From Moniliella sp. 'wahieum' (Eukaryota): a stretch of DNA of 64,000 nucleotides. The notes beneath the pieces are model-generated. The model was not told the DNA's origin, searched no databases, and saw nothing but the letters and a program-made list of their open reading frames with translations. Of the stretch, positions 31,300 to 33,142 are shown one piece after another. How positions within the stretch are numbered: the first letter of the stretch is position 1; every line of letters starts with the position of its first letter. Location of the stretch: assembly GCA_003971905.1 (NCBI GenBank), contig RSEE01000037.1, forward strand, positions 496,001-560,000. Reading direction: 5' to 3'. A program made the position numbers and the translations under genes.

Positions 31300-33110
31300 A
31301 TCGGGCAAAAAATAAGAACCGCTGCGCCTAAACCGACCTGCTCATCCAGTGCGTGTTGATTGTTATTGGCGCCAAACCCGTTTAGGGAACAAGGGGGGAA
31401 TCGCCAGCAGATCAAGGCCCTCTGGTACCACACCATCCGTTCTCACATACTACCACCGAGCGCGTGTAGATACGAATGAACGTGGTTGTTGAACGTTAAA
31501 CGTTGACATCCCAGCGGTGAACCATCTCCATGGAGTTTGCCAGTAGTCAATTCTTTCTATATAGTGCCCAAACATCTTGCTCACTGTCTTGGTGGCATAG
31601 TATGCTCGCGTCGTCATCAGAACCAAAGGAAAGAATGGTTCTTGGGTGCGTCACAAGAGTGAATGGCCTTGCTCCGTGCTCGACCCCCATTCTCAACGCC
31701 ATAATACTTGCCCATACCTGACTCGAGTCTGGGGCTGAAAAAGTTATATGCCGTTCATACGCAGTACTGGCTACGGTGAGGTAAATGCTAAGCACACAAA
31801 GGAAAGTTGATGGGGGGGGAAAGACGTCCCAGCAAAGGCGCCCGGGAGCAACGGACGCCTCTAGTATGAATTCAACAAGTTAATGCACAGGAAGCCAAAA
31901 CCCCTCCCAGTTTGGACTGTAATAGGCAAGACGGGGAAAGGGCAAGAGACAAGTAGGCTGCCCCAGGGCCTAGGACCATCGCTGGACAGTACCAAAGCAC
32001 TGGGGTGGACAACTCTCTTGAGGGGGGTAACGGGTTCATAGTGTGGCGGGGACAGACTCCTCGAAAAGGAGGAGCTTTCTTGGTTTAAAGAAGCTTAGCC
32101 AACTTGCGCCAGTTGCACGGAAGTCATTCCGTCAACGATGAAACGGAAGATGCAAAAGCCGGAGGGCGACGAGAAAACGACGAAAACCGAGCCGGCAAAG
32201 GGATGGGTGGTGTTGTGGTCAAATGGCAGACAGACAGACAGACAGACAACAGACAGACAGACAGACGTGTGTCAAAAAATCAAGACAAGGCGAGAGCCGA
32301 GGTGTGCAGAGGTCCACATTCGAAGGACTTGCGAAGACTAGGACGAGGTGTGGAGGGATCCACATTCAGAGGAGGGCAGGCTTGAGCAAGCGGCCGCGGG
32401 TACAAGGAAAATCAGAGTGGAGGATCCACTTTCGGGAAAGGCGCGATTCGACGATCCGCCGGGAGATAAGGCTCTGGGATTGCCAGCAGCCACATGGGTT
32501 TCGGGCCAAGCGTATGGCGCGCAGGCTGACCCGCAACCTAACATCGACGGGCGTGGCCCGGAACAAAGGGACTGGTTTTTCACGAACGTTCGTTGGCTTA
32601 CCAGAAACCAGTAGATGACCCATGACCATGATTAAAACACCACCTTCAACTTGATACCAACCGATTGGGGACAGAAGATCGGGAAGGGGTCGGGGATCGG
32701 GGATCGGGACGAGTAGCAACAGAGGACGAAAAGCTAGCGGATCAAGGAGGGCGCCAGCGCTCCCGCTGACCACACGCCACACCGAACCCGTTTACGGAGA
32801 GTGTGTTGTCCGAACTTGACTTCTTGCCGTCTTGACAGATCCAAACGCAAGCAGCGGCCCGGCAGAGGCGCTGGGGCTTTGCCAGTGGGAGCGCCGACGC
32901 GAGGGTTGGCCAAGGTCCAACGCCCAACCGAGCCGCTGCCTGGCCCGACCGCCTTGACGCGGGGAGAGACGGCGCCCGCCGCTGCCGGCTGGCCGTGGGG
33001 GGGAGCGTGTGCATGGGGTCTGCTCCACACACGCTGCCCATGGGCACCACCGCCAACCGATAGCGACGCGGAGGGGGGCGCCGAGCTCTGGCGGTCGGTG
33101 GAAGGAGAGA
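31300..33110 (-). ncRNA. Candidate long structured non-coding RNA of unknown family
   Basis: No credible ORF. Dense nested inverted repeats with G-U pairs only on the minus strand. TATAAAT upstream at 33136-33142. AUUUUUUG at 32273-32280 and 31306-31313. Confidence 0.35.
32226..32266. repeat. (CAGA)n tetranucleotide microsatellite
   Basis: cagacagacagacagacagacaacagacagacagacagac. Confidence 0.9.
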
Positions 33111-33135
33111 GCATGGCGGCGGCTGGATGCACGCG

Positions 33136-33142
33136 ATTTATA
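33136..33142 (-). promoter_or_regulatory. TATA box (TATAAAT) facing the structured region
   Basis: Isolated TATAAAT on the minus strand inside very GC-rich DNA, about 35-45 nt upstream of the first stem. Confidence 0.5.

Follow-up and report, generated by a model that had tools for sequence, protein, structure and literature searches.

In the genome of Moniliella sp. 'wahieum', a gap of 3.7 kb without any family-matched open reading frame (ORF) separates a GPN-loop GTPase gene (GPN2) from a RhoGEF gene, which raises the question of whether this gap contains a gene for a non-coding RNA and, if so, of which kind. We analysed it within a window of 64,000 nucleotides (contig RSEE01000037.1, positions 496,001–560,000; all coordinates below are those of the window), where an earlier note made from the sequence alone had placed a long, structured minus-strand RNA with a TATA box and Sm-like sites. 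We favour, at about even chances, a separate RNA polymerase II (Pol II) gene on the minus strand that is driven by this TATA box and gives an unspliced non-coding RNA of ~1.3 kb that is uncatalogued in Rfam. The unit likely runs from ~33090–33110 to ~31812. As to the candidate of the earlier note, the contigs, the strand-specific folding and the lack of an Rfam match described below fit a discrete non-coding unit that begins a short distance downstream of the TATA box; the length, second Sm site and selected structure given in the note were not supported. In particular, the discrete minus-strand unit was retained, but the extent of 31300–33142 (1.84 kb) was reduced to ~1.3 kb ending at ~31812, as 31300–31812 is without any support.

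Read coverage and limits of the proposed unit

Coverage of the gap was obtained from contigs of two public sequencing runs (X1 and X2) that represent close relatives, 2–3% different from the window, and that were mapped to positions 28000–36000. Three runs carry the stretch, with shares of 0.11–0.18; they belong to one study, the kind of library is unrecorded and none is labelled as RNA. Across these 8 kb, the X1 and X2 contigs cover 31813–33088 at depths of 7.8–34, besides two short pieces of low depth (61 nt at 2.2 and 211 nt at 5.5). This covered stretch, which we take as the minimum extent of the proposed minus-strand RNA, coincides with a pyrimidine-rich composition domain of the same strand (~31750–33150). 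X2 contributed one colinear contig of 1,143 nt (31813–32973, depth 34, 33 differing letters), and X1 contributed contigs at 31885–32219 (depth 7.8), 32499–32577 (22.8) and 32546–33088 (33.4). No splice joint was seen in the contigs of either run, including the colinear X2 contig. Two repeats, a G-rich heptad tract at 33146–33192 and a (CUGU)n microsatellite at 32227–32266, were skipped in the mapping.

A depth of 33–34 beside empty flanks is not expected of single-copy DNA, which makes RNA the likeliest source, and we infer that the X1 and X2 contigs derive from RNA. Their borders are unlike between the runs (31813 and 32973 in X2, 31885 and 33088 in X1), a pattern that suits a transcript whose read cover tails off better than it suits a repeat or amplicon, in which the borders would be fixed. 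Within the window, in which copy number was judged, we identified no second copy of the covered stretch, and the test for a transposable element returned one 55-nt match only, to 18011–18064, that originates outside the covered stretch. No reads across 28000–36000 were obtained from X14 (10.1 million records) or X16 (13.0 million records), two runs labelled as RNA; because even the flanking genes were without reads, the organism is absent from those runs.

Two side observations concern these matches. The 55-nt element occurs twice in the window, at 31396–31449 and 18011–18064, in opposite orientation and with 84% identity (E 3.7e-8), and its centre (GGGAATCGCCAG...CCATCCGTTC) is well conserved. 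The X1 contig of depth 22.8, which is 109 nt long, joins 32499 back to 32577 and may reflect either a 79-nt tandem duplication in the core or a library artefact.

The proposed TATA box, TATAAAT at 33142–33136 on the minus strand, is the sole copy on either strand of the window (0.87 expected). It had been named before the read data were seen, and the X1 contig was found to end 48 nt downstream of it. On its upstream side it adjoins the G-rich heptad tract (GGGGCGG-like, minus strand; period 7 at 33151–33184 by Tandem Repeats Finder, TRF), which is possibly a promoter element. A C/U-rich block, CUCUCUCCUUCCACC (33096–33112, minus strand), falls in the interval from the TATA box to the contig end and is the proposed start region; a start near 33090–33110 has good support from these observations, weakened somewhat by the X2 contig, which stops 130 nt earlier. 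Pol II would accordingly initiate ~30–50 nt downstream of TATAAAT. The transcript would reach at least 31813 and would probably end just after a terminal GC-rich hairpin at 31860–31836 (−15.4 kcal/mol), which is followed by a U3C8 tract; we propose 31812–31860 as the 3′ end region, with the X2 contig ending at 31813 and that of X1 at 31885.

The stretch is not conserved coding sequence, because five 1-nt indels between the relatives (at 32028, 32421, 32498, 32751 and 33036) break every candidate ORF. The longest ATG-initiated ORFs span 126 aa on the minus strand and 131 aa on the plus strand, and none of the three gap ORFs tested (126, 87 and 131 aa) matched a Pfam family, which agrees with the earlier observation that the region has no convincing ORF.

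Strand-specific folding and a conserved core

Folding energy was compared with that of 100 shuffles per segment on both strands. The segment 33110–32620 showed a z of −4.01 on the minus strand, with none of the 100 shuffles as good, and of −1.17 on the plus strand; the corresponding values for 32220–31800 were −2.55 (one of 100 shuffles as good) and −0.55. The middle segment (32660–32280) was ordinary on both strands (+0.19 on the minus and −0.59 on the plus strand), as were the flanks (z +0.34 for 31800–31040 and +0.31 above 33090). As background, 40 control folds elsewhere in the window gave a mean of −0.12 (standard deviation 0.97, minimum −1.86). The earlier note had named folding no better than shuffles as evidence against a structured RNA; we found a minus-strand excess in two of the three segments, but ordinary folding in the middle and at 31800–31040.

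The 5′ part of the minus-strand fold is composed of two long GC-rich hairpins. Hairpin A (32945–33098), present in both the minimum free energy (MFE) and the centroid structure and part of the segment with z −4.01, is closed by a 9-bp stem (33090–33098 with 32945–32953) in which all nine pairs are Watson–Crick. It also includes a hairpin at 33004–33034, whose stem (33004–33011 with 33027–33034) is real but had been described one base out of register. Hairpin B (32845–32944) includes a 12-bp stem (32851–32862 with 32928–32939) made of 11 Watson–Crick pairs and one G-U; in X2, three G-to-A changes turn pairs of this hairpin into A-C mismatches. Six smaller structures listed in the earlier note were reproduced, folding at −4.6 to −15.4 kcal/mol. 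Towards the 3′ end, a predicted three-way junction (32029–32114, minus strand) contains two adjacent short hairpins (32073–32096 and 32057–32074), the second with a stem of 6–7 bp and the loop CUUUUC. Among helices common to the folds of both strands, five sites are G-U on the minus strand, against 0–1 the opposite way. The asymmetry between G-U on the minus and A-C on the plus strand therefore holds in this genome, but it fails in X2, where the 12-bp-stem hairpin has the three A-C mismatches on the minus strand.

The (CUGU)n microsatellite (32227–32266, minus strand; TRF period 4, 10.2 copies) lies inside the proposed RNA. It reads (CAGA)10 on the plus strand, and as ~20 of the 24 gap letters of X2 are not listed elsewhere, its length probably differs between relatives. 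Separately, three similar small hairpin units (GAA[A/U]GUGGAnCC..CCAC) are spaced ~50–60 nt apart at 32290–32435, and the last two resemble a local duplication.

Several results weigh against a functional minus-strand RNA. Among the 38 sites at which X1 or X2 varies from the window, we found no compensatory pair change. In the minus-strand fold, 23 substitutions fall in stems; pairing is retained at 9 of them and lost at 14 (4 retained and 10 lost in the 5′ domain, 5 and 4 in the 3′ domain). The counts for the plus strand are no less favourable, with pairing retained at 9 and lost at 13. The X2 version of 32973–32620 loses 15 kcal/mol and its z shifts from −1.3 to +0.42. The runs themselves add to this side of the balance: the kind of library of X1 and X2 is unrecorded and all come from one study; they were selected for carrying the stretch, which means that its coverage in part reflects this selection; and the contigs are blind to strand, start and end. 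In addition, the X2 contig reaches only to 32973, in very GC-rich sequence, and so misses the proposed start by 130 nt, which indicates that GC-rich dropout also shapes contig ends. Of the folding excess, the X1 version keeps z values of −2.77 and −1.94, and the 3′ domain of X2 keeps part (z −1.75). The stability of the fold is thus real in this genome, but the relatives lend no support to the earlier suggestion of a selected RNA structure: no compensatory pairs were seen, and 14 substitutions break pairs.

The variable sites are distributed unevenly, at 4.3% in the 5′ arm, 3.2% in the 3′ arm and 1.45% in the middle. X2 has no substitution over the 220 nt from 32401 to 32620 (P = 0.03 for a largest gap this long), with 1-nt insertions behind 32421 and 32498, and X1 has a single change there, at 32610. 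We refer to this C/U-rich minus-strand stretch as the core; it contains a small multibranch element (32612–32571) and the motif AAAAACCAGUCCC (32580–32568). Conservation of the unit is thus highest in the middle, where variable sites are fewest and folding energy is unremarkable (z +0.19). In metagenome contigs, a 21-nt word taken from the core had no match. We also compared metagenome loci anchored on a GPN2 exon, of which 80 were retained out of 213 relatives, all of at most 69% amino-acid identity; none of these 80 loci showed DNA similarity to 33720–30100, the best E-value being 0.17.

Based on this arrangement, we suggest how the RNA may work. The two long GC-rich hairpins (33098–32845) would form a 5′ arm, and the hairpins and junction at 32114–31836 a 3′ arm, with the C/U-rich core (~32620–32401), conserved in sequence and not unusually folded, placed between them. 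The RNA would most likely act in its own right, with the fast-changing arms providing stability and the invariant, largely open core serving as a platform for a protein or nucleic-acid partner. Among known classes of RNA, a regulatory or scaffold long non-coding RNA (lncRNA) appears likeliest, as opposed to a telomerase RNA, small nuclear RNA (snRNA), small nucleolar RNA (snoRNA), RNase P/MRP RNA or signal recognition particle RNA. An unlikely but more specific version, framed for filamentous ascomycetes, is an abundant trans-acting “flexible scaffold” RNA, in which a core of ~210–220 nt would bind protein and the GC-rich arms would change quickly; such an RNA would be a subunit of an uncatalogued ribonucleoprotein and not a local regulator. 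If confirmed, the locus would represent a well-delimited and apparently well-expressed fungal lncRNA gene, and its clear promoter, unusually stable strand-specific fold and small invariant core would make it tractable for deletion and pull-down. The kind of finding would be unsurprising, since fungal genomes hold many lncRNAs.

Comparison with telomerase RNA and other RNA families

The locus could instead encode the telomerase RNA (TER) of the species, with a start upstream of 33290, the template UAACCCUA at 33268–33261, two arms, a core pseudoknot and an end at ~31812 or further down. We consider this very unlikely. The features tested were those described for TER of Pezizomycotina, and the comparison was made without a Sordariomycete TER sequence. 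N. crassa TER is reported to have the template 5′-UAACCCUAA-3′ and two long helices between template and core, and the Pezizomycotina pseudoknot features contiguous PK1 and PK2 helices, a loop of 4–5 U and U-A.U triples (PMC3592445). For Aspergillus, the template is given as GGGAA-NN-UAACCCUAA, with a boundary helix mostly two nucleotides from the template, and a CS4 block AAAAACC(U)GUCCC (PMC3603654, supplement S1). The 3′ end of Pezizomycotina TER is described as a product of spliceosomal cleavage, with a U-rich site, AUAAGU or AUACGU, and a branch site in this order (PMC4299874, PMC3603654).

Some of these features have counterparts at the locus. On the minus strand, a UUCCGCGGCGGAA hairpin is followed by CG and UAACCCUA (33261–33287), resembling a template with its boundary helix, but this element is situated beyond the covered stretch, ~120 nt upstream of the TATA box. 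The sequence GGAA-CG-UAACCCUA (33274–33261) shares its template permutation with N. crassa (PMC3592445), and its two-nucleotide spacing after the helix corresponds to that at the Aspergillus template boundary (PMC3603654). GGAANNTAACCCTA was found once in the window, where 0.05 occurrences are expected with up to one mismatch. UUCCGC and GCGGAA can pair, ending 2 nt before UAACCCUA, in a very short hairpin that is meaningful only if the template is real. The earlier note had reported no template; this is correct for words of at least 7 nt inside 33110–31800, but the UAACCCUA described above had been missed. Within the conserved core, AAAAACCAGUCCC resembles the Aspergillus CS4 block (one occurrence, 0.03 expected per window); it pairs with the upstream ACUGGUUU, and a run of four U lies 57 nt before it. 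Two long helices would also stand between template and core, as described for N. crassa (PMC3592445). TER of filamentous ascomycetes (2,049 nt in N. crassa, ~1.6–2.0 kb in Aspergillus) is further alike in lying in an ORF-free intergenic gap, in a length with which the 1.5–2.2 kb available here is in range, and in having long, fast-changing helical arms round a conserved core, in addition to UAACCCUA nearby with a helix two nucleotides upstream and an A-run core motif like Aspergillus CS4.

Other points differ from TER. The template-like word has 8 nt, not 9 or more, and is not part of the covered RNA, being located ~120 nt upstream of the sole TATAAAT and ~175 nt beyond the last covered base (33088). 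No telomere-like word of at least 7 nt occurs on the minus strand of 33110–31800, 33700–30500 holds just the 8-nt UAACCCUA, and this word falls within a C-rich run, UAACCCUACCCCACCC. The window has telomere-like 8-mers at ~10 places, about as many as expected by chance. A longer telomere-like word of 10 nt, ACCCTAACCC, lies on the plus strand inside GPN2 (34417–34426) and indicates that such words arise easily here. None of the 80 GPN2-anchored metagenome loci contains a telomere-template 9-mer downstream on the strand of the gene. As for the 3′ end, the minus strand of 33700–30500 has no ATA[AC]GT; looser A-first hexamers in the same region are ATATGT (31275, 30611 and 30555), ATGTGT (31112) and ATGAGT (31044), and no AUA(A/C)GU signal with a branch site was found.

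The structural features of TER gave a similar picture. A crude pattern scan, made without bulges, of the minus strand of 33300–31000 gave no hit for a compact pseudoknot in which the helices adjoin and one loop is a U-run; the helix ACUGGUUU/AAACCAGU and the U4 run exist, 21 nt apart, without PK1. Pseudoknots are beyond ViennaRNA prediction. Hairpins of the P6.1 type (4 bp, NUNGN loop) returned two all-Watson–Crick hits in 33700–30500 (31435 and 30934) and, with one G-U allowed, three more (33249, 33061 and 32608), none of them with an adjacent P6 hairpin. No all-Watson–Crick hit lies inside the covered stretch, and the strict hit at 31435–31423 is outside the MFE structure and within the 55-nt repeat also present at 18011–18064. 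The predicted junction at 32114–32029 has the wrong stem (6–7 bp) and the loop CUUUUC and is not P6.1-like. A junction motif of A, a 4-bp hairpin and GUC had a single, unconvincing hit at 32631. Long-range helices between the flanks of the template and of the core were no better than shuffles (z +0.84, −0.38, −0.01 and +0.69), the apparent 79-nt tandem duplication in the organism of X1 falls inside the would-be pseudoknot, and no Rfam telomerase match occurs in the window. The motif resemblances, moreover, were found after looking. As four defining features were looked for and not found, we do not file the locus as telomerase RNA. The case illustrates that a telomere-like word beside an ORF-free gap is insufficient to call a telomerase RNA and that the other defining features need checking.

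The proposed gene was also compared with catalogued RNA families. At the gathering score, Rfam had no match in the window, in agreement with the earlier suggestion that the locus shows no known-RNA signature and may be an undescribed RNA; at E-values up to 10, five chance matches to bacterial and viral families were returned (E 2.4–7). No tRNA is present in the window. The Sm-like motifs reported earlier do exist on the minus strand, GAUUUUUUGA at 32281–32272 and AUUUUUUG at 31313–31306. The former, a U tract resembling the Sm consensus through which the X2 contig reads, is located in the middle of the molecule and not near its 3′ end; the latter lies outside the supported RNA, where no contig maps and the segment 31800–31040 has z +0.34. 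ATTTTTTG is present in six copies in the window, compared with 0.92 expected from shuffles, which shows that U-runs are common here. The locus shares a TATA-type promoter, a U-rich RAU6GR motif and stable stem-loops with Sm-class snRNAs, among them the enlarged U1 and U2 of budding yeasts. It differs from them in that there is no Rfam snRNA match, we found neither a 5′ splice-site nor a branch-site recognition sequence, and the Sm-like motif is mid-molecule, lacks snRNA-like flanks and has six copies in the window.

Four further identities were tried and dropped. A Pol III product was rejected on the run of six U that sits inside the colinear contig, and a box C/D snoRNA on the absence of UGAUGA from the covered stretch, judged by eye and not by a formal scan. 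A long 5′ untranslated region (UTR) of the RhoGEF gene is inconsistent with the coding part of that gene being uncovered in the same runs, and a 3′ UTR of GPN2 with the uncovered gap at 33089–33566.

Alternative readings and flanking sequence

The remaining alternatives concern whether a transcript exists, what it does and on which strand it lies. The gap may contain no discrete functional RNA and instead be regulatory DNA that precedes the RhoGEF gene and includes GC-rich inverted repeats, in which case the contigs would represent multicopy or enriched DNA or unstable by-product transcription. We regard this as doubtful, though far from negligible. The unrecorded library kind and the single study are in its favour, as are the lack of covariation and the breaking of pairs by most stem substitutions; the core could be conserved as protein-binding DNA, and one X1 contig has a go-back joint, as repeats do. 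However, a depth of 33–34 over 0.5–1.1 kb beside uncovered flanks is unlike single-copy DNA, and borders that vary by run are unlike a repeat with fixed ends, of which no second copy is present in the window. The GC-rich sequence also appears to lack the decay typical of repeat-induced mutation, the folding excess is confined to one strand, and a TATA box is located where a start is expected. A transcript of the plus strand, from near 31800 to near 33090, would account for some of the same data, and we consider it highly improbable. A TATA-like TTATATG does lie on that strand ~65 nt before 31813, where the X2 contig starts, the X1 depth rises towards 33088 as 3′ bias would give, and four substitutions in hairpin B are wobble-compatible on the plus strand only. 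Against these stand the ordinary plus-strand folds (z −1.17, −0.59 and −0.55), the absence of an AU-rich plus-strand 3′-end context near 33090, the location of the consensus TATA box and C/U-rich block at the opposite end, and the G-U asymmetry of 5 to 0–1 in favour of the minus strand.

Alternatively, the RNA may be real and act only in cis, with transcription through the gap tuning the promoter of the same-strand RhoGEF gene and with sequence and fold being incidental. Fungi are known to have lncRNAs that regulate the gene following them on the same strand, the unit is located in tandem upstream of the CNH-domain RhoGEF gene and its structure is not conserved, all of which would suit such a role. 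Yet the covered stretch ends ~1.25–1.4 kb before the TATA-like boxes of the RhoGEF gene (30432 and 30558), so that the promoter is not overrun, and neither a 220-nt invariant core nor a strand-specific folding excess is needed for it; we consider the cis-only role quite unlikely. The comparison can be extended to intergenic regulatory lncRNAs of fungi, such as carP, located upstream of carS in Fusarium fujikuroi, and yeast SRG1, located upstream of SER3. These resemble the proposed gene in being Pol II-type units of ~1.2–1.3 kb without a conserved ORF upstream of a protein gene on the same strand. In contrast to them, the unit described here stops more than 1.2 kb before the promoter-like boxes of the next gene and combines a strand-specific folding excess with a sequence-invariant core. 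A separate minus-strand gene for a regulatory or scaffold lncRNA remains our preferred reading, at the strength given above.

In appearance, the window is GC-rich DNA of a filamentous ascomycete. Both neighbouring genes are on the minus strand. GPN2 ends at ~33726, and its family (PF03029) was identified in all three exon-bearing ORFs, in two of them above the curated cut-off. The RhoGEF gene, recognised by its CNH domain (PF00780, E 8.9e-12), is located farther down, and its first long ORFs start at ~30094–29935. Upstream of these ORFs we noted the TATA-like boxes CATATAAA near 30432 and TATATAT near 30558, which may be its promoter, and GTATGTGCTAAC at ~30497–30486, a 5′ splice site adjoining a branch site that may belong to a leader intron. 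Between the proposed RNA and this gene, AUGAGU, an A-first form of the common 5′ splice site GUGAGU, follows a C-rich run at 31039–31044; ACUAAU (30982–30987) lies 57 nt below it, and the pair is intron-like but located ~770 nt below the covered RNA. At the other end of the gap, a low-depth X1 contig matches the presumed 3′ UTR of GPN2 over 61 nt (33567–33627, five differences) and continues for 159 nt that are unlike the window, which indicates that this relative has either a rearrangement or strong divergence immediately below 33567.

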